DNA of 64,000 nt from Candidatus Spongiisociaceae bacterium (GCA_965202665.1 OZ241841.1:1888001-1952000); one strand, 5' to 3'. Positions 8,285 to 21,096 are shown, counted from the stretch's first letter. Made by a program: numbers and translations. The notes: a model not told the origin generated them from the letters alone.

Positions 8285-9346
8285 TTGAGGGAAACCGCCA
8301 CTTTGGGCGAGGCTTTGTCGACCGCCCGGACGGCTGCCGGGTTGACGCAGGAGCAGTTGGCGAAGCAGGCGGAGGTTACGCAGGCGGCTTTGTCGCGTTA
8401 TGAGAATGACCAACGCCAGCCGGATACTGAAACTTTGGAAAGATTGGCGGGGGCGTTGGGGGTGACCGGCGGGTTGTTGGAGCGGGCGGCTCGGGTGAGG
8501 GGCGGGTTGGCTTTGGACGCCCATGCGCGGCGGCGGGCCTCGGCCCCGGTGCGGGCGTGGAAAAGCGCGGAGGCGCGGCTTAACATCTTGCGCATTCAGA
8601 TGCACCGATTGCTGGCCATGATCGACTTGGAAATACCCAACGCGCTCTTGGGGCTGGATCCGCTGGACCACGCGCCGGACGCGGCCGCCCGGCTGACGCG
8701 GGCGCAGTGGGGGATGGCGATGGGGCCGGTGCGGGGGGTAACCGGTTGGATGGAGTCGGCGGGATGCGTTGTTTTGGAATGGGATTTCCGCACTCCCCGC
8801 ATAGACGCCGTATCCCAATGGGTGGACGAGTATCCGGTGGTGATGATCAACTCGCTTCTGCCCACCGACCGCAAGCGGCTCACCCTGGCCCACGAGTTGG
8901 GTCACTTGGTGATTCATGGGGATCCGGTTCATTTGTCTTCCGAAGTGGAACAGGAGGCGATGGATTACGCGGCCGAGTTTCTGATGCCCGCCCATGTGAT
9001 ACGCCCCGACCTGCGCAATCTGTCGCTGGGGAAGATCAGCGATTTGAAACGTTATTGGATGGTTTCCATGGCCGCCCTGGTGGAACGGGCCCATAGCCTG
9101 CGGACCATTACCGACGCTAGACGCATCTCCCTCTACAAGGCGTTGAGCGCCCGGGGGTGGCGCAAGCGGGAACCGCTCAGCGAGCAACTTCCCCCCGAGC
9201 AATCCTCCATCCCCGCCCTGATCGTCCAAGAGTTGTACAAGCTCCGTTACACCGCCGAGGAGATCGCCGACTTCGGCGGGTTCGCCGATGCGGAACGGGC
9301 GGCGCGGGTTCTGCCCCTGCAACGGGGGTTGCGGGTAATCCGGTAA
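8285..9346 (+). CDS. XRE HTH plus ImmA/IrrE-family metallopeptidase fusion
   Basis: N-terminal LTQEQLAKQAEVTQAALSRYEN HTH; RLTLAHELGHL and EQEAMDYAAEFLMP. Confidence 0.9.
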   Translation: MRETATLGEALSTARTAAGLTQEQLAKQAEVTQAALSRYENDQRQPDTETLERLAGALGVTGGLLERAARVRGGLALDAHARRRASAPVRAWKSAEARLNILRIQMHRLLAMIDLEIPNALLGLDPLDHAPDAAARLTRAQWGMAMGPVRGVTGWMESAGCVVLEWDFRTPRIDAVSQWVDEYPVVMINSLLPTDRKRLTLAHELGHLVIHGDPVHLSSEVEQEAMDYAAEFLMPAHVIRPDLRNLSLGKISDLKRYWMVSMAALVERAHSLRTITDARRISLYKALSARGWRKREPLSEQLPPEQSSIPALIVQELYKLRYTAEEIADFGGFADAERAARVLPLQRGLRVIR

Positions 9347-9379
9347 ATCCGGCGCGGCGCCGGTTATGATACGGGGGCT

Positions 9380-10210
9380 ATGTTGCGCAGCCTTCTGTAC
9401 GTCCCCGCCGACCAACCGCAGATGCTGGCCAAAGCCGGCGAGCGGGGGGCCGACCTGGTGTTGATCGATTTGGAGGGTCCGGCGGCGGACAAGCAGGAAG
9501 CCCGCCGTCAGGCGGTGGCCGCCATCATCAAGTTGAAAGGGCAGGGGGCGGCGGTGGGCGTGCGGGTCAACAGCCAGCCCGGCGAGCTGGAGGACGACCT
9601 GTCCGCCTTGGCCACCTTGGAGTATTTGGAGGGGGCGGGGGTGGGGCTGGACATCGCCTGCGTACCCCAAGCCAACCTGGCGGCCATCGAGCATATGGGA
9701 GGGGCCCTGGCGGAGACGGGTTTGGCGGCCCTCATCGAAACCGGCCGGGGGTTGCTGGACGCCCCCATCCTGGCCGCCCATCCGCGGGTGGTCAGGCTGG
9801 CCATCGGGGAAGCCCACTTGACGGCCGATCTGGGAATGTCCGACCCGGAGGAGAACGACTGGTCCCCGGCCCGTTCCCAGTTGGTTTGGGCGTCGGCGGC
9901 GGCGGGCCTCCCCGGGCCGATCGGCCCCGCCTACCCCGACATCGCCGATCTGGAAGGGCTGGCCCGCTCCACCGCCCGGCTGGCCGCCCAGGGTTTTACG
10001 GGCCGGGCCGCCGTTCATCCCTCCCAGGTGCCGGTCATCAACCGGGTTTTCACCCCCACCGCCGACCAACTGGCGGCCGCCCGCCGCTTGGTGGAGGATT
10101 ACGATTCGGCGGCGGAGGACGGCCGGGGGGTGGTCACCGATGAACAGGGGAGAATCGTAAACCTGGCGGTGGTGCGCCGCTGGCGCCGCCTGCTCTCCGG
10201 GTCCGAATAA
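9380..10210 (+). CDS. CitE-like CoA-ester lyase (HpcH/HpaI aldolase/citrate lyase family)
   Basis: RSLLYVPA, IDLE, VRVN, ALIETGRG, AVHPSQVPVINRVFTP. Confidence 0.85.
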   Translation: MLRSLLYVPADQPQMLAKAGERGADLVLIDLEGPAADKQEARRQAVAAIIKLKGQGAAVGVRVNSQPGELEDDLSALATLEYLEGAGVGLDIACVPQANLAAIEHMGGALAETGLAALIETGRGLLDAPILAAHPRVVRLAIGEAHLTADLGMSDPEENDWSPARSQLVWASAAAGLPGPIGPAYPDIADLEGLARSTARLAAQGFTGRAAVHPSQVPVINRVFTPTADQLAAARRLVEDYDSAAEDGRGVVTDEQGRIVNLAVVRRWRRLLSGSE

Positions 10211-10233
10211 ACGTAAGCGAAACCGGAGGGGGG

Positions 10234-10992
10234 TCAGGGGGTGCGGCGGCGGAGGCGGACGCGGTAGGTGTAGCGCTGGGGATGGAAGTGGCTGATGGCC
10301 AGTTCGATGGGGATTTGGTCTTCGTCCAGGTAGAGGCGGTCCACATGCAGGACCGGCTGGCCGGGTTCGATGTTGATGTGGCCGGCGATTGCGTCCGGGG
10401 CGGGGGCGGCGGTCAGGCTCATGTCGGCCTGGGCGGCCCGGCGGCCCGCCGCCCGCTCGATGGCGCCGATGACCGTGATTTCGCTGGCCGCCCCTCGTTT
10501 TGCCAACTCCGGCATCTCCGACAGGACGGCGCCGATTTCCATCGGCACGTGGATGGTGGTGACGCAGAACGGAACCCCCTCGTGCAGGCGCCTGATCACC
10601 CCGGTGGACACCAGGTCGGTGTCCTGTTGCAGGCACCGGGCCACCCCGATGTCCACCGTGCGGCGGAAGGGGTACAGCACCTCCATCGTGGTGTCGATGG
10701 ACAAGGCCAGGATTTCCTCCACCGACCCGAAATGGCGCATGTAGCGCCGGTGGTAGGGAGTGGCGAAAGTCCCTTTGCCGGGCACCCGGTACACCAGTCC
10801 CTCCGACACCAGATCCTGGTAGGCGCGGCGCACCGTCTGCCGGCTCACCCGGTATTGGACGGCCAGTTCCGCTTCGGTGGGGAGCCGTTCGCCTTCCGGG
10901 AACTCCCCGGACAGGATGGAGTCGGCCAAGGCCCGGGCCAGCTGGGTGTAGGCGCTGTCCGGTTTGGGGTCGGCGACCGCGGCGGAGGGCAT
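10234..10992 (-). CDS. GntR family regulator, HutC subfamily (UTRA domain)
   Basis: LPTEAELAVQYRVSRQTVRRA..GKGTF winged HTH plus C-terminal UTRA-like domain. Confidence 0.9.
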   Translation of the reverse strand: MPSAAVADPKPDSAYTQLARALADSILSGEFPEGERLPTEAELAVQYRVSRQTVRRAYQDLVSEGLVYRVPGKGTFATPYHRRYMRHFGSVEEILALSIDTTMEVLYPFRRTVDIGVARCLQQDTDLVSTGVIRRLHEGVPFCVTTIHVPMEIGAVLSEMPELAKRGAASEITVIGAIERAAGRRAAQADMSLTAAPAPDAIAGHINIEPGQPVLHVDRLYLDEDQIPIELAISHFHPQRYTYRVRLRRRTP

Positions 10993-10999
10993 TTCCCGC

Positions 11000-11299
11000 T
11001 TACCCCCCGGCCGGTTCCAAAAGTTCCATCAACATCACCGTCCGCTCGGCCAGCAAGGGCCGGATATGTTGCACGCCCAAGCCGTTGAAATGATCGGAGG
11101 CGACATGGGCGTCGAAGGCGGCTTGGTCCTCGTACTGTTCGTAGAGGACGAAGACGGCCGGGTCGTCGTTGGAGCGGTGGGCGTTGAAAGTGACGCACCC
11201 CGGCTCGGCCCGGGTCAACCCGATGTATTCCCGGAGCAACTCCGCCGCTTTTTCTTCGTTGCCCTCCGCCACATGGTAGGTGGCCAGCACGTTGATCAT
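11000..11299 (-). CDS. Putative quinol monooxygenase (ABM domain)
   Basis: TRAEPGC..FVLYEQYEDQAAFDAHVASDHF. Confidence 0.88.
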   Translation of the reverse strand: MINVLATYHVAEGNEEKAAELLREYIGLTRAEPGCVTFNAHRSNDDPAVFVLYEQYEDQAAFDAHVASDHFNGLGVQHIRPLLAERTVMLMELLEPAGG

Positions 11300-11339
11300 C
11301 GTTATTCCTTTCCGTTGGTTGGTTCCGGTTCTGCCCGGT

Positions 11340-11747
11340 TCACATTCCGGCGAAGCCGATTTCCCGCAGTTGGCGGCGGGCTTCGTCGGACACTTCGTCC
11401 GGCGTCCACGGCGGTTCGAACACCCATTCCACCGCGATGTCGTCCAGCACCCCGCCCCCCACCAGGGCGGTGCGCATCTGATCTTCGAACACCCGGTTGA
11501 GCGGGCAGAACCGGTTGGTCAAAGTCATCTGCAACTCCGCCCGCCGCCCCCGCACCCGGATGCCGCGGATGAAACCCAGGTCCACGATGTTGATTCCCAG
11601 GTCGGGGTCGATCACCACCCGCAACGACTCCCGGATCCGTTCCGCGGTCTCCGCCGCCCGCGGGTCGTCCGCGGCGGGGGGCGGGGACTCCTCCGGCGGG
11701 CGGGCGGCGCCGATCGCAACCGGCTGGGCGGGGAGGGGCGGTTTCAC
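11340..11747 (-). CDS. Metal-sulfur cluster assembly factor (DUF59/SufT/PaaD-like)
   Basis: VIDPDLGINIVDLGFI, MTLTNRFCPL, VFEPPWTPD; GTG start overlaps the upstream TGA. Confidence 0.88.
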   Translation of the reverse strand: MKPPLPAQPVAIGAARPPEESPPPAADDPRAAETAERIRESLRVVIDPDLGINIVDLGFIRGIRVRGRRAELQMTLTNRFCPLNRVFEDQMRTALVGGGVLDDIAVEWVFEPPWTPDEVSDEARRQLREIGFAGM

Positions 11748-12187
11748 AGCGGGTTCCCTTTTGACGCAACCCGTCCGTTGCCCGCCGGGCTGGAAAGAAA
11801 GGCGTCGGCGGCGGGGGGCGGGGCGGCGACCGTAAAATCTATGGCGACGCCGGTGGTGCGGGTGGTGATCCAGTCGGCTATCCTGTGCGCCATCCGCCGC
11901 AGGCGGGTGATGACTTCCCCGTCCCCCACTTCCCAACCGGCCACCGTCAGATGATGGGGGCCGATCCCCAGCCGCCGGGCTTCGGCCAACCCCTGCTCGA
12001 ACACCCGGGCCAGCTGGGCGCAGGCCGTCCCCGGCCGGAACTTCACCGCCCGGTAGGCTTCGGCGGCGGTCATGCCGACCAGGCGGGCCAGGATGCGCCG
12101 GGCCTTCTCCTGCTCCACCCGCACGTTGTCTTTGCGGGCGGTCACCGTCTCCGGCAACGGAAACTCGGGCCGGGCGGGGGAGGTCAC
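11744..12187 (-). CDS. Divergent ribosomal protein uL22-like protein (147 aa)
   Basis: TARKDNVRVEQEKARRILARLVGMTAAEAYRAVKFRP..LTVAGWEVGDGEVITRLRRMAHRIADWITTRTTGVAI aligns by eye with the uL22 pattern; GTGA overlaps on both sides. Confidence 0.7.
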   Translation of the reverse strand: MTSPARPEFPLPETVTARKDNVRVEQEKARRILARLVGMTAAEAYRAVKFRPGTACAQLARVFEQGLAEARRLGIGPHHLTVAGWEVGDGEVITRLRRMAHRIADWITTRTTGVAIDFTVAAPPPAADAFLSSPAGNGRVASKGNPL

Positions 12188-13422
12188 GCCCCCGCCCCCG
12201 CCAGGGCCGCCCGGCGCAGATCCAGGTCGGCGTCCTCCACCATCTCCCGGGTGACCGGCGCCCCGGCCGCCATCAGCTTGCGGGCGGCCAGAATGTCCCG
12301 GGGCCGGTCCACGGTCAGGGCGGCCCGGATGCGCCCCTCCTGCAACTGGAAGGCGGTGAACCGGCGTTCCTCCAGCGACCCCCGGATGAGGTACGGGGCC
12401 TGCGGGTCGAACAGGCCCTGCGACTGGATGGTGTGGTTGTACTGGTCCGACCAGAACCAGTGCGGGATGGGCTCCGGGTTGTCCAAGCCCAGCATTCCCC
12501 GGGCGGCGGCCGCTCCCTGGCGGGCGGCAGTGTCGTGATGCTCCACCCTCCGGTATTCCCCGGTTTCCGGCTGGTATTGGGCGGCGACGTCCCCGGCCGC
12601 AAAAATGTTGCGGACGACGGTGCGGCAGTCCCCGTCCACTTGGATCCCCCCGGCGGCGGGAATGGGGGAGCCGGCTGCCGCCTCCGTGTTGGGAATCATC
12701 CCGGCCGCCGCCACCAGCAGGCCGCATTCCACCGTTCCCCGGTCGGTTTCCACCAGCAGGCCGTCCGATGTTTCGGCCAGGCCGGTGACCCGCTCCCGCA
12801 GGCGCAGTTCCACACCCCGTTCCCGGTGGATGTCGGACACCACCCGCCCCAAACGGGGGCCGAGCGGGATCCGCAGGCAGGAGTCCAGCATTTCGATGAT
12901 GGTCGCCTCCCTCCCCAAAGCGCGGGCGGAGGCGGCTGTTTCGCATCCGATGAAACCGCCGCCCAGCACCGCCATCCGCCCCCCGCCCAAAGCGGCCAGC
13001 CGCTCCCGCAGGGCGGCGGAGTCCTCCAAGGTGCGCAGGTAAAACACCCGTTCCCCTTCCAAACCGGGGAGGCGGCGGGCCCGGCCCCCGGTAGCGATGA
13101 GCAGGGCGTCGTAGGACAGCCGCCCCCCGTCCTCCAAGACCGTTTGGCTAGCCGCGGCGTCAACGGAGGCGGCCCGGGTTTCCAACAGCAACTCCACCTC
13201 GTTTTCCCCGTACCAGGCGGCGGGCCGCAACCGGCAGTCGGGGGCCCGCCCGGGGGCGGTCAGGGCTTCTTTGGACAGGGGAGGCCGCTCATAGGGCGGC
13301 TCCGACTCGTCGGAAACCAAAATGATCCGCCCCTCGTACCCTTCGCTCCGCAAGGCGGAGGCGGCCGAGACGGAAGCTATTCCGCCCCCCAGCAATATTA
13401 TGGTTTGGGGGAAGCCGGGCAC
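12184..13422 (-). CDS. Ferredoxin reductase (glutathione-reductase-type FAD/NADH oxidoreductase)
   Basis: GGGIA, PYERPPLSK, ATG, GGGFIGCE, FAAGD, WFWSDQY. Confidence 0.92.
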   Translation of the reverse strand: MPGFPQTIILLGGGIASVSAASALRSEGYEGRIILVSDESEPPYERPPLSKEALTAPGRAPDCRLRPAAWYGENEVELLLETRAASVDAAASQTVLEDGGRLSYDALLIATGGRARRLPGLEGERVFYLRTLEDSAALRERLAALGGGRMAVLGGGFIGCETAASARALGREATIIEMLDSCLRIPLGPRLGRVVSDIHRERGVELRLRERVTGLAETSDGLLVETDRGTVECGLLVAAAGMIPNTEAAAGSPIPAAGGIQVDGDCRTVVRNIFAAGDVAAQYQPETGEYRRVEHHDTAARQGAAAARGMLGLDNPEPIPHWFWSDQYNHTIQSQGLFDPQAPYLIRGSLEERRFTAFQLQEGRIRAALTVDRPRDILAARKLMAAGAPVTREMVEDADLDLRRAALAGAGA

Positions 13423-13423
13423 C

Positions 13424-13750
13424 TCAGCCGGGCGGGGCCACGCAGATGGCGCCCTCCTCCACCCGGCAGGGAACCGGGCTCAGGGAGCTGTCGGCCGGGT
13501 TAATGCCCTCCCCGCTCAGGGCGTTGAACTCCCACATATGGTTGACGCAGGTCAGGACGTCGCCCTCCAAGTCGCCGTCCGACAGGGGCCATTCCTGATG
13601 CGGGCAACGGTCCTTGTAGGCCCGCACCTCCCCGTCCACGTTGACCAGCACCACTTTGACCGGGCCCGCCTCCACGCCCACCATGTCGCCCTCCCACAGG
13701 TCGTCCAGGTCGTAAACCTTCCGCCACGGCCCCCCGCCGTCGCCGGTCAT
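13424..13750 (-). CDS. Rieske [2Fe-2S] ferredoxin (TmoC-like)
   Basis: CPHQ..LTCVNHMWEF..GEGINP. Confidence 0.92.
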   Translation of the reverse strand: MTGDGGGPWRKVYDLDDLWEGDMVGVEAGPVKVVLVNVDGEVRAYKDRCPHQEWPLSDGDLEGDVLTCVNHMWEFNALSGEGINPADSSLSPVPCRVEEGAICVAPPG

Positions 13751-13764
13751 CGCCGTCCGCCCGG

Positions 13765-14802
13765 TCAGTTGGAGGCGGTTGCCGGTTCGCCCAAACCGGC
13801 CGCTTCCAAGCCGGCGTTGCGGGCGGCGGCCGCCTCGGCGGCCACCCCCTCCGGGCTGATCCCGCCCGCCGGGGCCCCGGCCAACAGCCCTCCCAGGGCC
13901 AAAGCGGCCGCGTCGGCCCGCGGGGCCCATTTGCCTATCCACCGGCGGTAGGCGTCGGCGTTGTCCGGCCGTTGCTCCACCGTCAGGCGGGCCAGGGCGC
14001 CGCACCAGCGGGCCCGGCGTTCCACGTCTTCATGCAGGTTTTCGCACAGGAGCCAGGTCAGGTCGTCGCCGTTGGCCCGGGCCGCCTCCCCCAAAGCGCG
14101 GATCAGCACATCGTCCAAAGTTGGGGCGATCACCAGGTTGGCGGCGGTGAACGACTCCCCCCAGTCGTAGGCGATCAGGGCCAGTTCCAAGGCTTCCCGG
14201 GCCGGTTGCCATGCGGGATGGTTTTCCCAAATATCCCGTTCCCCGACGGCGAAGCCTTTCTCCGGGAAGGCGATCTGCAACTCGCGGGTTCGGTAGGAGA
14301 CGTTGGTCACCCGCCGCAACTGGTCGGCGGCGGACAGGGCGGCCGCGTTGCTGATGTACGCGGAATGCCCCAGATGGCAGATGTAGGCCTGCAGCATCTG
14401 CAGGGCGTGGGCCGGGAACCGGGTAGGGGTGAAAACGGTGCGCAAAATTTCCCGCCATCCCCCGGACAGGTTTTGGTCGTGGTTGACGCCGGCGTAGGAG
14501 TCGAACAGCCCGGCCATGGCTTTCTCCCGGGCCGACTGTTGCGCCACGTAAGCCCGGTAGGTGAGCTGGTCGGGATCCCGGAAGTCCTCCCAGTCGTCGA
14601 TCTGCACCGGGGAGTTGTCCCGGTAGGCCAGAAACCACAGGTTGCCCGGCGAGGACGGGTTCTGCTCCAAAGCCGCCTTGCGATCCTTGCGGATGGTGTA
14701 GTTGGCGGCGTGGGCGCCGATCTCGTACTCGGTGGGGCGGCGCCGGGTTTCTCCGAACTCGCTCCAAGTGCGGAGTTTGCGGGGTTGCGGTTGGTCGGTC
14801 AT
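13765..14802 (-). CDS. Soluble di-iron monooxygenase hydroxylase beta subunit (TmoE-like)
   Basis: LRTWS..RRRPTEYE, DWEDFRDPDQLTYRAY, WQPAREALE..YDWGESF. Confidence 0.92.
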   Translation of the reverse strand: MTDQPQPRKLRTWSEFGETRRRPTEYEIGAHAANYTIRKDRKAALEQNPSSPGNLWFLAYRDNSPVQIDDWEDFRDPDQLTYRAYVAQQSAREKAMAGLFDSYAGVNHDQNLSGGWREILRTVFTPTRFPAHALQMLQAYICHLGHSAYISNAAALSAADQLRRVTNVSYRTRELQIAFPEKGFAVGERDIWENHPAWQPAREALELALIAYDWGESFTAANLVIAPTLDDVLIRALGEAARANGDDLTWLLCENLHEDVERRARWCGALARLTVEQRPDNADAYRRWIGKWAPRADAAALALGGLLAGAPAGGISPEGVAAEAAAARNAGLEAAGLGEPATASN

Positions 14803-14834
14803 AAGGCCTGCCTTTCTCCCGGATTCCCCCGGGC

Positions 14835-15137
14835 TCAGCCGCTTTCGGTGGCTCCGCCCAGCGACCAGGTGATCTGCTCGGCGCTGGAAGTGTCGATTCG
14901 CCCCGCGTTGGCGGACAGGTGGTTTTCCAGCGAAGGCAACTCGAATTCGGGTCCCAGGTGCCGCCGCAGGGAAGCGACGGTCACTTTCATGAATGAGGGG
15001 GCCTGGATGCGGACGTAGGCCCCCCGGTCGATCACCTCGATGTCCACGCCCGGGTTGTCGTCTTCGATGGCGCTCACCACCCGCTCCACCGGGGCGCCCA
15101 TGCGCAGAATCGGGCCAACGGGGTTTTCCATCGCCAT
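14835..15137 (-). CDS. Monooxygenase effector protein (MmoB/DmpM, TmoD-like)
   Basis: VGPILRMG, IEDDNPG, DRGAYVRI, LGPEFEL..AGRI. Confidence 0.9.
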   Translation of the reverse strand: MAMENPVGPILRMGAPVERVVSAIEDDNPGVDIEVIDRGAYVRIQAPSFMKVTVASLRRHLGPEFELPSLENHLSANAGRIDTSSAEQITWSLGGATESG

Positions 15138-15142
15138 CCTCC

Positions 15143-15451
15143 TCAGTCTTCGTCCGCGTAGTCCACCCGCACATGGTCCAGGGGGGCGATCCCCGCCTCG
15201 GCCACGGTCAGGTCGTCGTCCAGCAACCGGTTGTTGTGGTACACCACTTTGCGGGCGTCGCGGGCCCGCACCCGGGAGGTGGCGTGATGCTCCACCGCCC
15301 CCGCCAACTCGGCGATGGTCTGGTTGGACATCACCGGGATCAGCAACTCCACGAAGTCATCGTGGAAGATGGCGTTCAACGGAACCAGTTGCGGCTCCGG
15401 GGCGTCCCCGGGCTCCGGGGCCGCTTCCGGGGCGGCGCCGTTGTCGCTCAT
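15143..15451 (-). CDS. Monooxygenase gamma subunit (TmoB-like)
   Basis: PLNAIFHDDFVELLIPV..TIAELA..TVAEAGIAPLDHVRV; ATGA overlap with the alpha-subunit stop. Confidence 0.85.
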   Translation of the reverse strand: MSDNGAAPEAAPEPGDAPEPQLVPLNAIFHDDFVELLIPVMSNQTIAELAGAVEHHATSRVRARDARKVVYHNNRLLDDDLTVAEAGIAPLDHVRVDYADED

Positions 15452-16956
15452 ACCGCCGCCCCCGCCATCGCCGGTTCGGCCATCGGATAGGTTTTGGTCC
15501 ATTCGTAGCCGCCGGCGTCGTCCCCGAAGACATCGGGGGTGAGGCCCATGTAGCCCAAAATTCCCGGTACGTCCATCGGCTGGATCTCCCCGGCCAGGAA
15601 CCGTTCCACCACCGTCTTGTTGTTGAGGGCGTCCCGGTCCTCCCACCAAATCTGCCGGCATCCTTTGGTGCAGAAATGGTAGGTCACCCCGTTGTGCTTG
15701 AGCGAGAAGTTGCGCACCCGCCATTTGCCGTCCCTCCCGTAGGTGGCGTTGCAGGTGGGGAGCATGCAGTAGTTGCACAGCCAGGGCAGGGTTTCGGGCA
15801 GGGCCCGCTCCATTTTGCCGTTGTTGACGTTTTCGGCGATCACCCGCCACTTGTCGCCGTAGAGGGTGTCCCAGTTGGGATACTTTTCCATCAGCCACTC
15901 GCGGGATTCGGCGTCCACCCCCACCGGTTTCCACCACAAAGTGGGCCGCCAGAACCATTCGCCCATCTGCAGGGAATGGTGCCACACGTCCAGTCCCTCC
16001 ATGAACTCATCCCAGTACCAGGGTTTTTTCAGCCCGTAGTCCTGAATGGTGCGCACGAACTGGTCGATGATCCACTCTTCCATGAACTCCCGGTAGCTCT
16101 GCTTGCGGTGCTCCACCGGGGTGTTGTAGTCCATGGAGGGGCCGGTCAGGGCGGAGAAAGCGCGGGCGGACAGCCAGAAGAACTTGTCCACCGTCCACTG
16201 CGCCCGCACCGGGTCGTGCTCCACCAGGATCTCCAGAGTGGGCCCGCCCTGCTGGGAGTGGCGGGCCTCGTCGGTCTGGATGGAGGAGATCATGTTGGCG
16301 AAGTTGACGTCCCCCACCTCCAAGGCGTCGGCCGCCAACGCCACGAACTGGATGTTGGTGAAGCCGGTTTCGAAGGTGAACGGGAGCTGGATGGCGATGT
16401 CCACCACGCTGCCCCCGATCATCATGTTGTCGATCAGGGCCCGCAGGGCGATGCTCACCCAGTCGTTGGTGAGCAGGGCCCGGTGCGCCCAGTCGAACTG
16501 CGGATCGTCGGCCACCATTTCGTGTCCCACCGACAGGCTGAGCTGCCCGTGCCGGATTTCATCCAAGATGCCCATGACGGCCATGTTGCGCCAGGCGGGG
16601 CTGAGGCCGAAGCGGGCCATGCGGCTTTCCCCGTACACGGCCGCGTATTCCACCAAGGCGATGCCCCCCAGGTGCATTTTCACCGAGGACTTCCACGCTT
16701 CGGACAGGCCGTCGAACTGGTTGGAGCGCCGCAGGGCGTTTTTCACCGCGTAGGCGGACACCTCTTTTTCGTTCTGGGTGGCCACGTATTCGGGGTAGGC
16801 GACCTTGTAGCTCTCCTCCCACTTGGACCAAGCCTCGCGGGGGACTTTGCCGCTGCCGCTCAGCCAGTCCGGGTAGACGGCCTCATCGTCCACGTAGCGC
16901 AACGTCCAGTCGACATCACGGACGATGCCCTGCCATTCGTCTCGTTTCAACGTCAC
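15448..16956 (-). CDS. Soluble di-iron monooxygenase hydroxylase alpha subunit (TmoA/TouA/IsoA group)
   Basis: Iron ligands EYAA, DEIRH, FETGFTN, DEARH; C-terminal YHS-like YHFCTKGC. Confidence 0.95.
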   Translation of the reverse strand: MTLKRDEWQGIVRDVDWTLRYVDDEAVYPDWLSGSGKVPREAWSKWEESYKVAYPEYVATQNEKEVSAYAVKNALRRSNQFDGLSEAWKSSVKMHLGGIALVEYAAVYGESRMARFGLSPAWRNMAVMGILDEIRHGQLSLSVGHEMVADDPQFDWAHRALLTNDWVSIALRALIDNMMIGGSVVDIAIQLPFTFETGFTNIQFVALAADALEVGDVNFANMISSIQTDEARHSQQGGPTLEILVEHDPVRAQWTVDKFFWLSARAFSALTGPSMDYNTPVEHRKQSYREFMEEWIIDQFVRTIQDYGLKKPWYWDEFMEGLDVWHHSLQMGEWFWRPTLWWKPVGVDAESREWLMEKYPNWDTLYGDKWRVIAENVNNGKMERALPETLPWLCNYCMLPTCNATYGRDGKWRVRNFSLKHNGVTYHFCTKGCRQIWWEDRDALNNKTVVERFLAGEIQPMDVPGILGYMGLTPDVFGDDAGGYEWTKTYPMAEPAMAGAAV

Positions 16957-16969
16957 AGTCGGACTCCTT

Positions 16970-17434
16970 TCAGTCGACTTCCATATGGCCCAGTTGACGA
17001 TAGATCCCGGCGTTGTCCCAGTAGGCGGTGATGCTTTCGATCTTGTCGTCCCCGTTCACATCGAAGATGAAAACGTGCGGCTCCCAGTATTTGCAACCGG
17101 TGGGCGCGATCGGCCCCCAGGCTTTCTCCTGGGTGCCCCCCACGCTGACCACCGCCGCCACCTGTCCTTCTTCGGAGGCGGTGATGGAATGCACTTCGTT
17201 GGACAGGTCGGGGAAAGAGTTGATCAGCCCCTCCCACATCGGCCGGCCCAAAGTGGCTACTTTGCCGTCCCCCCGGATCACCCGCTGCTTGCCCCAGATC
17301 TCCACCGGGACGTAGGAGAAGTCGGCGGTGTCGGTGCACAACTCCACCATCCCGAGGGTGTCGTGGCTGCGGTAGGCGTCGAAGAAGTCCTCCACCACTC
17401 CCGCCGCTCCGGTTCTTTCCATGGTTGCGGTCAT
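16970..17434 (-). CDS. NTF2/SnoaL-like protein
   Basis: VVEDFFDAYRSHD, SFPDLSNEVHSI, FDVNGDDKIESITAYWD. Confidence 0.82.
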   Translation of the reverse strand: MTATMERTGAAGVVEDFFDAYRSHDTLGMVELCTDTADFSYVPVEIWGKQRVIRGDGKVATLGRPMWEGLINSFPDLSNEVHSITASEEGQVAAVVSVGGTQEKAWGPIAPTGCKYWEPHVFIFDVNGDDKIESITAYWDNAGIYRQLGHMEVD

Positions 17435-17481
17435 CGTCTTTCGCCTTTCCCTCGCCTTACGTACTTTCCGATATCGGGTTT

Positions 17482-17901
17482 TCAAACTATGGATACGCTG
17501 TCCAGCCGTTTTACGGCCAGCCGCCGATAGAGGATGTTCTGATCCCAGAACCCTTTGATGGAGGTGATGCGGCCGTCGCCGGTGCCCAGCAGCCACGCCT
17601 GGTCCAAGTCCAAGTGTTTCTCCTGGTTGACCACCCCCAAATAGTCGGCGGCCTGCGTGCCTTCCATTTTCAGCTGGGTGACCACCGTGCCGTCGGAGCC
17701 CGTGAAACTGGATTTCTCGGTGAGGAGCAGGTCGGGGAAGGCAGTCGTCGTTTCGTCGAAGAAGGCCCGGGCTTCCGCCTTGCCCCCGCTCACCCCCGCC
17801 GGGGCTATGTCCGCAACGGCCCCCTCGTCTACTTCGGCGAAGGCCCGCTCCACATCGCGGTCGCGGATGGCGTTCCAGAATCTTGCGACTGTCTCCGACA
17901 A
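17482..17901 (-). CDS. SnoaL-like ester cyclase family protein
   Basis: FWNAIRDRD, AFPDL, MEGTQ, DGRITSIKGFWD; GGAGG RBS. Confidence 0.82.
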   Translation of the reverse strand: MSETVARFWNAIRDRDVERAFAEVDEGAVADIAPAGVSGGKAEARAFFDETTTAFPDLLLTEKSSFTGSDGTVVTQLKMEGTQAADYLGVVNQEKHLDLDQAWLLGTGDGRITSIKGFWDQNILYRRLAVKRLDSVSIV

Positions 17902-17943
17902 CTTGTCAACCTCCTCCCGGGTCGGGAACCCTCCAATTTCTCC

Positions 17944-18963
17944 TCAGAGAGCCTCCATGTACTTAAGCACCGCGTCGGCCACCGCGTCCGCCGAACCCGG
18001 ATTTTGGGCGGTGATCAGGTTGCGGTCCACCACCACGTGCGAAGCCCAGGCGGCCCGCCCGTCGTCGAACACCGCCCCGTTGTTGCGCAGGGTGCTCTCC
18101 AAGTACCAGGGCATTCCCTGTTTGCCGGGGCGGGTCTGATCCTCCTCTTCGTCGGTGAAGGAGGTCATCCGGTACCCGTCGAACAGCCACTGGCCTTCGG
18201 TGTTGGCGGGGGCGGACAGCAGAACCGCCGGGCCGTGGCACATTGAGGAAATGGCGGCCTGCTTCTCGTGCAGGATGCCCAGCAACCGGGTCACGTCCGA
18301 GTTGTCGGACAGATCCACCATCGGGCCGTGCCCGCCGGGGACGAACACCGCGTCGAAGGTGGCCATGGTTTCATCGCTCATCTCAGCCAGGTTCGCCGGG
18401 TTGACGAAGTCGGGCAGGGTGTCCAGCAGGTGCTTGATGCGGGAGGCTTCGCTGCGGGCGTCTTCGTTCACCGTCGCCAAATCCGCTTCCATATCGGCCC
18501 GCGTCACCGAGGCGGGAAGGTCCTGGTCCTGCAGGGAGTCCAAGAACTCCCGGTCGTTCCGCCACGTGTCGAGGGCGGCGACGTTGATCAGCTCCCGGGC
18601 TTCCACCGGGGTCATGCCCGCTTCTTTGAGCCGGTTGAAAACCCGCCGGGAGGCGATCATTCCCAGCTCGGTGAGGTGGCGGAGGGTGAGGCGGATGTCG
18701 TCCACATCGTGGGCGAAGGTGCGGGTGATGGTGCCCAGAAAGTCTTCGTCTTCGTCCGGGTAGTGGAAGATTTCCTCCAAGCCGTAGGGGTCGGGGTAGG
18801 GGGAGCGTCCGTCCGGGGTGGCCACCACCACGTCCAACCCGGCTTCCGTGAACCGCTCGTAGGGGGTAATGGCCTCGTCGGCGAAGAAGCCGGTTTCGTA
18901 CATCGTCCCGTTGGACATCTCGATCTCCCGGGCGCTCGACACCAGGAACAACAGTTTCGGCAT
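17944..18963 (-). CDS. DJ-1/PfpI (Hsp31-like) type 1 glutamine amidotransferase-fold protein with an internal insertion
   Basis: TGFFADE, ATPDG, FVPGGHGPMVDL, SMCHGPAVL, ITAQNPGS. Confidence 0.88.
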   Translation of the reverse strand: MPKLLFLVSSAREIEMSNGTMYETGFFADEAITPYERFTEAGLDVVVATPDGRSPYPDPYGLEEIFHYPDEDEDFLGTITRTFAHDVDDIRLTLRHLTELGMIASRRVFNRLKEAGMTPVEARELINVAALDTWRNDREFLDSLQDQDLPASVTRADMEADLATVNEDARSEASRIKHLLDTLPDFVNPANLAEMSDETMATFDAVFVPGGHGPMVDLSDNSDVTRLLGILHEKQAAISSMCHGPAVLLSAPANTEGQWLFDGYRMTSFTDEEEDQTRPGKQGMPWYLESTLRNNGAVFDDGRAAWASHVVVDRNLITAQNPGSADAVADAVLKYMEAL

Positions 18964-19065
18964 ATCAAATCCCTTTCCTTAGCGTGCTTTCAAATGTAGC
19001 CGTTCGGCGGGACAAACGATAGCGCCTCGGCCCCGCCGCATGCGCCCGCCTGACAATATTTTCTT

Positions 19066-19080
19066 ATTGTACAGACAAAT
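19066..19080. promoter_or_regulatory. Candidate GntR/HutC operator upstream of the monooxygenase operon
   Basis: TTGT-ACAG-ACAA palindrome in an AT-rich patch; matches the TGT-N-ACA pattern of HutC-subfamily boxes. Confidence 0.6.
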
Positions 19081-19120
19081 CCGGCAAATGCGCGGCCAAA
19101 TCCGAATTTTTTTGGAGGTC

Positions 19121-20017
19121 TCAGCCGCGGATTTGGGCCAGGCGGCGGGCGGCTTGGGTGAAGTAAGCCCCGTACTCCAACGGGGCCAGCCAGCGGCCGG
19201 GGATGCCGTCCACCCCGGCGATTATTCCGAGCAACCCCCCGGCGATGGCCCCGGTGGTGTCGGCGTCGTCGCCCCGGTTGACCAGTTTGACCAGCGTTTC
19301 CTCAAAATCGGGCGGTTGTTGGATGGCCCACACCGCGCACCCCAGGCTGTGGACGACGTAGCCGCCGGTGCGCAGGCCGGTCACCGGCAGGTCGGCGGGC
19401 AGGTCCAGGGTTTCCCGCACCGCCGGGTGCAGGCCCAGGGCGCGGGCGGCGGCGACCGCTTGGGCGGGGGAGGCCCCGTCCAACAGGGCGGCCGCTATTT
19501 CGTTGTAGGCGATGCAACTGTCCACGCATTTGGGATGGGCGTGGGTGACGGCGGAGATCTCGGCCGTTTCCCGTCGGCGCCGTTCCGGGTCGGGGCGGGT
19601 CAAAGCGGTGGGCAGGGCCCGCATCAGCGACCCGTTGCCGCAGGAGTTTTCGGAACGGAGGCCGCTGGCGGTCGGATCTCCATGTTCGGCCAAGTTTTCC
19701 AGGGCGCGGCGGGTGGCGCCCCCGATGTCAGGGGGGCCGGTGTAATACCAAGCCAGGAATTCGTCCGCCACTTTGCTCAGGCGGTATTCGCCGTCCAGAT
19801 AGGCGGCGGTCACCGCTTTGGTGAGAGCGGTGTCGTCGGTGCCCTGCCCCGGTTCCCAGCCGAAGGCCCCTCCGCCCGTCATTTCCCGATGGGTTCCGTG
19901 CCGGAGCTTTATTTCTTCGGCGCTCATGAATTCGACGGTGGATCCCAAGGCATCGCCCGCCGCTGCGCCGAGCAGTCCGCCGGCGATGGCCCGTTCCAGG
20001 GAAGGCCGGTCGCTCAT
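19121..20017 (-). CDS. ADP-ribosylglycohydrolase (DraG/ARH family)
   Basis: GDALG, GTDDT, GNGSLMR, THAHP, GDDADTTGAIAG. Confidence 0.92.
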   Translation of the reverse strand: MSDRPSLERAIAGGLLGAAAGDALGSTVEFMSAEEIKLRHGTHREMTGGGAFGWEPGQGTDDTALTKAVTAAYLDGEYRLSKVADEFLAWYYTGPPDIGGATRRALENLAEHGDPTASGLRSENSCGNGSLMRALPTALTRPDPERRRRETAEISAVTHAHPKCVDSCIAYNEIAAALLDGASPAQAVAAARALGLHPAVRETLDLPADLPVTGLRTGGYVVHSLGCAVWAIQQPPDFEETLVKLVNRGDDADTTGAIAGGLLGIIAGVDGIPGRWLAPLEYGAYFTQAARRLAQIRG

Positions 20018-21096
20018 TCCCCCGGGCCTCCGGGGGGCGGAGATTGGGTTTCCCGGTCCCGGAGCTGGGCTTGGCGGGACTGCTCCAGGATGAGGTGGAA
20101 GATTTCTTCCACTCCGTCCGCGTCCAGCCCGGCCCGTTCCGCCTCTTCCCGGATGATTTCCAGCAGTTCCGTTTCCCGTTCCGGGATCTGCACCGGCATG
20201 TTCCGCTCCGCTTTGATGCGCCCGATGCGCATGGCCTGCTCGTGCCGGTTGGCCAGCAACCGCACCAGGTCGCGGTCGATCAGGTCGATGTTGTTGCGGA
20301 TGCGGTGCACACCCAGGGCGGTCATCAGCCGGGCGAAAGCGGGGGGGTCGATCTGATGGGAGACCCTGGTGCGGGCGGCGGGCGGGTCGGGATGCACTTC
20401 GATCATCACCCCGTCCGCCCCCACGCCCTGGGCGGCCAGGGCCAGCGGCTGGATTTGCCCGGCGGCCCCGCTGGCCGCCGACGGGGCGGCGATCACCGGC
20501 AGATGGCTGGCTTCCCGCAACACCGGAATGGAACTCAGGTCCAGAGTGGTGCGGGTGGAATGCTCGAAGGTGCGGATGCCGGCTTCGCACAGCACCACCT
20601 GATCGTTGTCTTCGGCCAGGATGTATTCGGCCGCCCACAGCCATTCGTCCACCGTGGCCGACCCGCCCCGGGCCAGCAAAACCGGCTTCCCGGTTCGTCC
20701 GATGACCCGCAACAGTTCAAAGTTCTGCATGGCGTCGGGGTCCACGTAGATCATGTCGGCGTATTCGGCCACCATTCCCACATCTTGCGGCTCCAGCACT
20801 TTGGTGAGGGTGGGCAACCCGGTTTCCTCCCCGGCCCGGCGCAGGATTTCCAAGCCCGGTTTGCCCAGCCCGGGAAAGTCGTAGGGGGAGCTGGCCGCCT
20901 CGTAGGCCCCGCCCCGCAACACGGAGGCCCCGGCTTCCGCCACCGCCAAGGCGGCGGTCATCATCTGCTCTTCGGTCTCCACCGCCCGGGGGCCGGCTAT
21001 CACCGGGAACGGGTCGCGGCCGAACCGCACTGGCCCCACCGCCACCACCGTATTCTCGGCGGAGCCGTTTCTGAGTGCTCTGCGTTCCATTTCCAC
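20014..21096 (-). CDS. Type I-beta DAHP-synthase-like domain (degenerate active site) fused to C-terminal AroQ chorismate mutase
   Basis: IAGP, MQNFELL, GIRTFE, EVHPDP scaffold; C-terminal RNNIDLID..R..K..ERE..S..Q. Confidence 0.88.
   Translation of the reverse strand: MEMERRALRNGSAENTVVAVGPVRFGRDPFPVIAGPRAVETEEQMMTAALAVAEAGASVLRGGAYEAASSPYDFPGLGKPGLEILRRAGEETGLPTLTKVLEPQDVGMVAEYADMIYVDPDAMQNFELLRVIGRTGKPVLLARGGSATVDEWLWAAEYILAEDNDQVVLCEAGIRTFEHSTRTTLDLSSIPVLREASHLPVIAAPSAASGAAGQIQPLALAAQGVGADGVMIEVHPDPPAARTRVSHQIDPPAFARLMTALGVHRIRNNIDLIDRDLVRLLANRHEQAMRIGRIKAERNMPVQIPERETELLEIIREEAERAGLDADGVEEIFHLILEQSRQAQLRDRETQSPPPGGPGE

Follow-up and report, generated by a model that had tools for sequence, protein, structure and literature searches.

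The locus described here raises the question of why a relative of the universal ribosomal protein uL22 should be encoded inside a di-iron monooxygenase operon. The window, that is the whole stretch of DNA analysed, comprises 64,000 nucleotides (nt) from Candidatus Spongiisociaceae bacterium (GCA_965202665.1 OZ241841.1:1888001-1952000), and the gene in question lies between a ferredoxin reductase gene and a gene for a DUF59 protein. A first-pass annotation of the window had proposed a uL22 paralog embedded in such an operon, and the comparisons below bear this out: the gene is distinct from rplV, fixed in its operon context and coupled to DUF59. Its company suggests a part in maturation of the monooxygenase.

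The open reading frame (ORF) is read on the minus strand, from a GTG start at 12187 to 11744, and encodes 147 amino acids (aa); the plus-strand reading of the same interval is interrupted by a stop. As had been described, it is the 3' part of a longer spurious ORF (400 aa, 11744..12946), which is out of frame with the reductase gene that it overlaps, and at its two ends it shares a GTGA with the reductase stop and with the DUF59 start. The GC content by codon position (0.70/0.57/0.87) resembles that of the neighbour genes. The protein (P0001) matched the Pfam model PF00237 (Ribosomal_L22) with 44.7 bits (expectation value E 1.7e-11; gathering cut-off 28 bits), and the top match in a PDB sequence search was mycobacterial uL22 (E 2.5e-6). 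In a scan against Pfam and NCBIfam uL22 models were the only matches, and no known monooxygenase accessory family was matched. A cluster representative that is 97% identical to the window protein (P0002) was modelled with AlphaFold2 (predicted local distance difference test 86.5) and has a predicted alpha/beta uL22 fold with an extended beta-hairpin. Among the 50 Foldseek matches listed for this model all were uL22-family ribosome chains, the best with E 2.1e-10 and a template modelling (TM) score of 0.71 on the target. An ESM Atlas search gave best scores of 0.87-0.88, which are taken as leads only. By profile match and structure-model match together, the uL22 likeness first noticed by eye is confirmed as true homology.

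The genome's own canonical rplV was found elsewhere (G000:C1:2040083, 116.8 bits) between S19- and S3-like genes, which answers the first-pass suggestion to confirm a separate canonical copy. The window ORF is 24% identical to it over 74 residues (BLASTP). On the rplV equivalog model TIGR01044 the window ORF scored 39.6 bits and the genome's own rplV 113.2 bits, with a cut-off of 73.65; four other paralogs scored 30.8-63.7 bits, so that 5/5 tested paralogs were under the cut-off. Compared with uL22 (RplV; PF00237, TIGR01044; 5o60_T, 5v7q_S, 1bxe), the paralog thus has the same fold, length and long beta-hairpin, whereas it is about 24-30% identical, lies outside the S10 operon, is a second and up to a fourth copy in the genome and is often fused to DUF59.

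Residues were compared between 70 paralogs and 30 canonical uL22 sequences, the latter including L051 and L058 (genomes G126 and G157; both also in the tree below), with L029 left out; no conclusion hangs on these two genomes by themselves. Residues K17, R26, S54, N58, P87 and P94 (own rplV numbering throughout), which are invariant or nearly so in uL22, are replaced in the paralogs, as are R95, R99, R102, K105 and H109, and R106 is retained in just 36 of the 70; invariant basic residues have become H, D, W or T. We take the lost invariant residues to be 23S rRNA contacts. In the ribosome, the uL22 hairpin lines the exit tunnel. The mean core net charge is +2.3 in the paralogs vs +10.6 in canonical uL22, and +7 in the window copy vs +13 in its own rplV; the hairpin of the window copy, which had been called less basic, carries 5 basic residues vs 10 in the genome's own rplV. 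Judged from these aligned residues, the paralog family has shed much of the basic surface of uL22.

In its place a new and near-invariant hairpin motif is found, R-x-R-R-x-A-H-G-x-A-D-W, with R98, H101, D105, W106 and T108-T109 (window numbering) as new near-invariant residues; the His is sometimes Tyr in fused forms (9/71 in a motif-selected set). The well-conserved arginines of the paralogs are R23, R31, R35, R61, R72, R95, R97 and R98. At position 102 the family has Gly (68/70 paralogs, and 14/15 among the cluster members listed), whereas codon 102 of the window (11884-11882) holds an Arg allele, which was found in runs X1, possibly the source run, and X7 (depth 2.7 in X7), the Gly allele being found in runs X3 and X8. 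The residue pattern given at first pass was therefore right as to uL22 likeness and needs correction in two details: 'AH-R' should be AH-G, and the lysine of 'KAR' is a local allele, with E at this position in 43/70 paralogs and K in 10/15 of the cluster members listed. The ratio of nonsynonymous to synonymous substitution rates (dN/dS), obtained from 21 pairs among 7 related sponge-type loci, was 0.043 for the hairpin, 0.168 for the body of the protein and 0.059 for the hydroxylase alpha subunit. The rewritten hairpin is under strong purifying selection.

Sequence searches yielded 23 and later 62 uL22-like relatives, and when 50%-clustered representatives were searched with a profile, paralogs of graded score ranked above canonical uL22. 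A quick tree with 113 rows placed 45 paralogs on one side of a long branch (Shimodaira-Hasegawa-like approximate likelihood ratio test 99) and 68 canonical sequences, chosen mostly from actinobacteria, on the other, L017 and L029 being left out; actinobacterial uL22 was the best-scoring canonical match to the paralogs. The genome-collection scan gave 17 loci, from sponge-associated Acidimicrobiia, Pseudonocardia, Amycolatopsis, Dactylosporangium and soil metagenome-assembled genomes (MAGs), the nearest related locus being 82% identical, and the family extends over sponge-associated Acidimicrobiia, Pseudonocardiaceae of soil and Rhodococcus. Near-identical DNA is present in sponge and marine metagenome runs, so that the host is probably a sponge-associated member of the Acidimicrobiia, with no RNA run listed as a carrier, and no relative was found in the viral contigs searched. 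Among 400 other Actinomycetota genomes (10 candidates scored per genome) there was no paralog-level match, which indicates that the family is rare in this sample, and the 29 best non-self matches with loci were all beside an S19-like gene. Seven of the genomes counted there, G126 and G157 among them, are marked as unpublished. A partial duplicate of the uL22-like gene was seen in L017:8739-8975, and frameshifted or decayed operons in L029, L184, L185 and L186.

A neighbourhood survey, suggested at first pass as a check, showed that in 17/17 genome loci DUF59 directly follows the uL22-like gene and that Rieske and/or hydroxylase genes lie upstream of it. The order DJ-1, two SnoaL genes, hydroxylase was found in 15 of the 17, the other two being cut by contig starts. 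The 80 best of 302 confirmed metagenome loci were all in-frame L22like-DUF59 fusions, the query being a fusion alignment, which favours fused forms. Directly upstream of these were a Rieske gene (39 loci), a reductase gene (29) or an alpha gene (4), together 72/80, and in the remaining 8 the upstream DNA (at most 360 nt) was too short to tell. Among the 120 long homologs listed, 118 had PF00237 plus PF01883 and none had a Pfam partner other than DUF59; the automatic JGI annotation of many reads 'metal-sulfur cluster biosynthetic enzyme/ribosomal protein L22'. Two groups of fused forms were first noticed in the 113-row tree, and a single fused clade was then rejected by the approximately unbiased test (p = 0.023; quick tree, 36 rows), which suggests that fusion or fission occurred more than once. 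In an AlphaFold2 model of fusion P0049 both domains were confident and the linker disordered (predicted TM score 0.54; small paired depth).

A subgroup of short contigs has a simpler layout. In L085, L092, L114, L119 and probably L079, the fused L22like-DUF59 gene comes immediately after a group 1 alpha gene (with a GTGA overlap in L092 and L119), and no gamma, coupling, beta, Rieske or reductase gene follows the fused gene. The hairpin of this subgroup is altered to M-H-R-x-G-Y-G-L-A-D-W. In L114 the 455 nt of upstream DNA contain no operon gene; alpha has an internal deletion there and is without the second iron-ligand segment. The alpha pieces in three of 4 such loci are under purifying selection (w 0.12-0.17).

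The gene also follows one clade of hydroxylase alpha. Among 41 genomes (the host and its relatives) the same 9 carry both an in-clade alpha and the paralog, and a tenth has an alpha at 48% identity and no paralog. In 201 Pseudonocardiaceae genomes there were 14 places with an in-clade alpha (at least 68% identity), and the paralog was found in 9; of the other 5, three are cut by contig ends and two are frameshifted remnants without it. At alpha places of 44-56% identity in the same genomes the paralog was found in 0/7. On plasmids, 1/19 alpha homologs was in-clade and the paralog occurred only beside that one, on a Rhodococcus koreensis plasmid that carries the whole operon and whose fused gene has no annotation other than iron-sulfur cluster assembly protein. 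Where upstream DNA sufficed, every paralog was found with monooxygenase genes and none in a ribosomal operon. Neither of the outcomes named at first pass as refuting the idea, a missing uL22 profile or structural match or homologs unlinked to monooxygenase clusters, was observed. The gene is thus part of the monooxygenase operon and inherited together with it, as would be expected of an accessory factor of the PaaD, PhK/DmpK, MmoD or MimG kind. In the operons of G577 and G541, which are without the uL22-like gene, DUF59 is missing too. G436 (Pseudonocardia endophytica; L021, L022, L151, L188) has three paralog copies, one per operon, in addition to rplV. By tblastn layout two of these are separate and one is fused, and the genome has five group 1-like alpha genes, three of them in this operon type. 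A four-cysteine alpha site (CxxC...CxxxC) was considered as an explanation of the pair and rejected as a discriminator, since it is present in 48/48 distinct L22like-linked segments and also in 6/8 from operons without the gene.

Taken together, the DUF59-only fusion, the joint loss with DUF59, the presence of one copy per operon and the lost basic residues favour an assembly role. Of the three functions suggested at first pass, the DUF59-linked assembly or metal-loading factor is therefore preferred, and the swap-in ribosomal subunit and the RNA-binding regulator are disfavoured. That the pair acts in maturation outside the ribosome, whichever protein is its client, seems to us probable. Our tentative choice for the specific form of this role is that the paralog and DUF59 help to assemble or iron-load the di-iron hydroxylase. 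The hairpin would then serve as a protein-binding finger recognising the apo-hydroxylase, most likely its alpha subunit, and DUF59, which has a conserved cysteine, would be carried by the paralog to the hydroxylase client, as proposed for PaaD. PaaD is likewise a DUF59 protein of a di-iron monooxygenase operon (PaaABCDE); in the available text of PMC4498308 it is proposed to act in iron incorporation, and PaaABCE depends on it in vivo though not in vitro. Soluble di-iron monooxygenase (SDIMO) clusters often include chaperone or accessory genes of their own, according to the accessible part of a review (PMC11825192). In contrast to the present pair, PaaD has no uL22 partner, and the hydroxylase here is group 1 ToMO/T4MO-like and not Paa.

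Several observations weigh against this proposal. The pair is not universally required, because the G577 operon is intact (DJ-1, two SnoaL genes, alpha at 56%, gamma, coupling, beta, Rieske, reductase) with neither the uL22-like gene nor DUF59, and canonical group 1 operons consist of six genes only (PMC11825192, section 3.1); PaaD itself is non-essential in some conditions and strains according to the part of an E. coli review that was available (PMC13186573). The case for alpha as the client comes from 4 related short contigs, 3 of which start inside alpha, and L114, the sole one with upstream DNA, is that with the internal deletion in alpha. The paralogs keep the full uL22 hairpin length and a net positive charge, which would fit RNA binding too, and retain the canonical invariants R12, G27, A33, G86, R91, R93, A96, G98, A100, I103 and T107. 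Finally, given that the window allele has Arg at the near-invariant Gly102 and that dN/dS in the window lineage is higher (0.36 vs L013), the window copy may be drifting. The G577 operon (L187; G577:C33:660000-678000), which has a second, divergent reductase gene upstream, provides a natural control.

The maturation pair could also serve the Rieske [2Fe-2S] ferredoxin, which we consider unlikely. DUF59/SufT proteins are Fe-S maturation factors and DUF59-Rieske domain fusions exist (PMC4982691, available text), and in 39 of the 80 best metagenome loci the nearest upstream gene is Rieske. In four loci, however, the fused gene comes immediately after alpha and no Rieske gene adjoins it, and the host keeps other DUF59 copies (3 in G000). 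Moreover, the identity of the uL22-like protein between loci correlated (rho) with that of beta (0.82), coupling protein (0.74), DUF59 (0.71) and alpha (0.69) and less with that of Rieske (0.36), a weak indication from 7 loci with non-independent pairs. Given the four alpha-only loci and a divergence that tracks beta, coupling protein and alpha, the hydroxylase appears the likelier client.

It is likewise doubtful that the paralog replaces uL22 in the 50S subunit, whether simply as a swap-in or to anchor DUF59 at the tunnel exit for co-translational metal loading. The uL22 fold and hairpin length are kept, and NCBIfam models a C-terminal fusion to true uL22 (L22/unknown-domain model PRK12279). 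The uL22 loop is dispensable for growth of E. coli (PMC4937340, in the part available), so that function might survive a change in the hairpin. Against this stand the scores below the equivalog cut-off, the loss of about ten canonical invariants with the fall in core charge, the three diverged copies in one genome, one per operon, and the absence of the paralog from ribosomal operons wherever upstream DNA sufficed. A version in which the protein is bound to the 50S subunit and positions DUF59 where the tunnel opens, for delivery of iron into nascent monooxygenase chains, would have a low probability.

Slightly less likely than ribosome entry is an RNA-binding regulator of the operon, in which the RNA surface of uL22 would be reused on its own mRNA. 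Eight arginines are well conserved, and many bacterial ribosomal proteins are autogenous repressors; the available text of the review concerned (PMC10931766) mentions uL22 twice and gives no extraribosomal role for it in either place. No conserved RNA element that could serve as the target was found in 34 operon leaders or by Rfam over 9000-21000 of the window. The sole shared leader motif, GGAATGGGCA, was present in 14/34 leaders. It was not found in the final 170 nt of the window leader, and GGAATGGGCA less its first base was present in L185, which is without the uL22-like gene. An RNA regulator would also leave the exclusive fusion to DUF59 unexplained. The composite GGAATGGGCA-N(6-7)-(T)CAGCAGGAA occurs in 10-16 of the 34 leaders, about 100-130 nt before the DJ-1 start (L022, L073, L075, L077, L078, L084, L091, L096, L098, L115, and further L124, L131, L136, L150 and L185). 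It, too, was not found in the final 170 nt of the window leader, and it is probably a regulator operator or promoter element; a scan for sigma-70 promoters gave no match.

It is improbable that the paralog is a stoichiometric subunit or modulator of the hydroxylase (MmoD-like), or a helper of the DJ-1, SnoaL or ABM proteins, and that its link with DUF59 follows merely from gene order. The uL22-like gene overlaps the upstream stop by 1 or 4 nt in 13/16 loci and DUF59 in 9/15, and this conserved translational coupling suggests equimolar synthesis; coupling is, however, common throughout the operon, and joint loss with and repeated fusion to DUF59 point to DUF59 specifically. A non-functional hitchhiker or decaying rplV duplicate is very improbable: the window allele breaks a near-invariant glycine, yet the hairpin dN/dS is low and the family is conserved from Acidimicrobiia to Rhodococcus as one clade on a long stem, and at the level of the family decay is refuted by the residue comparison and dN/dS.

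The maturation role preferred here is of a known kind for an accessory factor, and a re-purposed uL22 as its part is, as far as searched, undescribed in the searchable literature. Subscription papers and supplements aside, no paper on a uL22-like monooxygenase gene was found; the accessible part of the SDIMO review (PMC11825192, 2025) has no mention of L22, ribosomal, DUF59 or SnoaL, and all that the R. koreensis R85 paper has on the matter is 'toluene degradation' for plasmid p2. Among the SufT/DUF59 architectures S1-S9, conserved-cysteine DUF59 is fused to auxiliary N- or C-terminal modules, as here, and S2 has an N-terminal motif without known homology; in the available main text of that study, supplements excepted, no uL22 module is named and neither 'ribosomal' nor 'L22' occurs (PMC4982691). 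Zn-free paralogs of the bL31B type are likewise diverged second copies of a ribosomal protein, but they swap into ribosomes under Zur control, whereas the uL22-like copy sits in a catabolic operon. uL22 is not a Zn-motif protein. The highly diverged ribosomal paralogs reported in the accessible text of Yutin et al. 2012 were all among Zn-motif proteins (PMC3353972).

uL22 is regarded as encoded once per genome and confined to the ribosome; here a family that is strongly diverged and under strong selection is found in a fixed non-ribosomal context. If the proposal is true, a universal ribosomal protein has been re-purposed for metalloenzyme biogenesis with its exit-tunnel hairpin now a recognition finger, and a family widespread in soil and sponge actinobacteria has been hidden under the labels 'L22' or 'iron-sulfur cluster assembly protein'. 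It would offer a handle on DUF59 function and client finding, and on the accessory factors behind the difficulty of expressing di-iron monooxygenases of actinobacteria heterologously. Since there are cultured carriers (Pseudonocardia endophytica, P. sulfidoxydans, Amycolatopsis sp. GM8, Dactylosporangium, and Rhodococcus koreensis R85 on its plasmid), the role is experimentally approachable. The paralogs pass the Pfam L22 cut-off and would therefore contaminate single-copy-marker sets, where they could be mistaken for the marker gene; in the MAG G440 (locus L027) the paralog is present and canonical rplV is not, probably because of incompleteness.

The features of the operon are collected in Table 1. 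An operon was assigned to group 1 when its alpha was more than 35% identical to group members and gamma, coupling, beta, Rieske and reductase components were present; the window operon has this alpha identity and all of these components, and given that its alpha is nearest to ToMO/T4MO it is read as a group 1 di-iron monooxygenase of non-canonical order. It shares alpha, gamma, coupling protein, beta, Rieske and reductase with ToMO (TouABCDEF) and T4MO (TmoABCDEF), but the order is alpha-gamma-coupling-beta-Rieske-reductase as against alpha-gamma-ferredoxin-coupling-beta-reductase in canonical six-gene group 1 operons (PMC11825192), the ferredoxin of the window coming after beta. DJ-1, two SnoaL, uL22-like, DUF59 and ABM genes are extra. 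The top model for the window DUF59 was PaaD, with 67.6 bits, below its cut-off.

Table 1. Coordinates of the uL22-like gene, its hairpin and the surrounding operon in the window.
Feature	Position	Strand	Remark
uL22-derived accessory protein (putative), 147 aa	11744..12187	minus	core about residues 14-120; C-terminal about 25 aa of low confidence
Family-defining beta-hairpin R95-T112, RLRRMAH[R/G]IADWITTRTT	11852..11905	minus	
DUF59 / FeS_assembly_P protein (PaaD/SufT-like, DPD...TLT..CP cysteine motif kept)	11340..11747	minus	fusion partner in relatives
FAD-dependent ferredoxin reductase (Pyr_redox_2 + Reductase_C)	12184..13422	minus	absent from many related operons
Rieske [2Fe-2S] ferredoxin	13424..13750	minus	
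Hydroxylase beta subunit, TmoE-like	13765..14802	minus	
Coupling/effector protein (MmoB/DmpM, TmoD-like)	14835..15137	minus	
Hydroxylase gamma subunit, TmoB	15143..15451	minus	
Di-iron hydroxylase alpha subunit, group 1 (ToMO/T4MO-like)	15448..16956	minus	E 1e-163 to ToMO alpha
SnoaL/NTF2-like protein 1	16970..17431	minus	
SnoaL/NTF2-like protein 2	17482..17901	minus	
DJ-1/PfpI (Hsp31-like)	17944..18963	minus	first gene of conserved operon
ABM-family protein	11000..11299	minus	often downstream of DUF59
GntR/UTRA regulator	10234..10992	minus	downstream in some loci

The DJ-1 and two SnoaL genes (16970-18963) match the hydroxylase in conservation (dN/dS 0.06-0.09) and head the operon in every full-length locus of the 17-locus set; the proteins that they encode may process the oxidised product. 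In L026, L027 and 39 of the 80 best metagenome loci there is no reductase gene between the Rieske and uL22-like genes, and in such operons the electrons must come from an unlinked reductase. Outside the operon, a regulator combining a helix-turn-helix with an IrrE/M78 peptidase lies downstream at 8285-9346, and an ADP-ribosylglycohydrolase lies upstream at 19121-20644, the latter being shared with L013 alone among the 17 loci.
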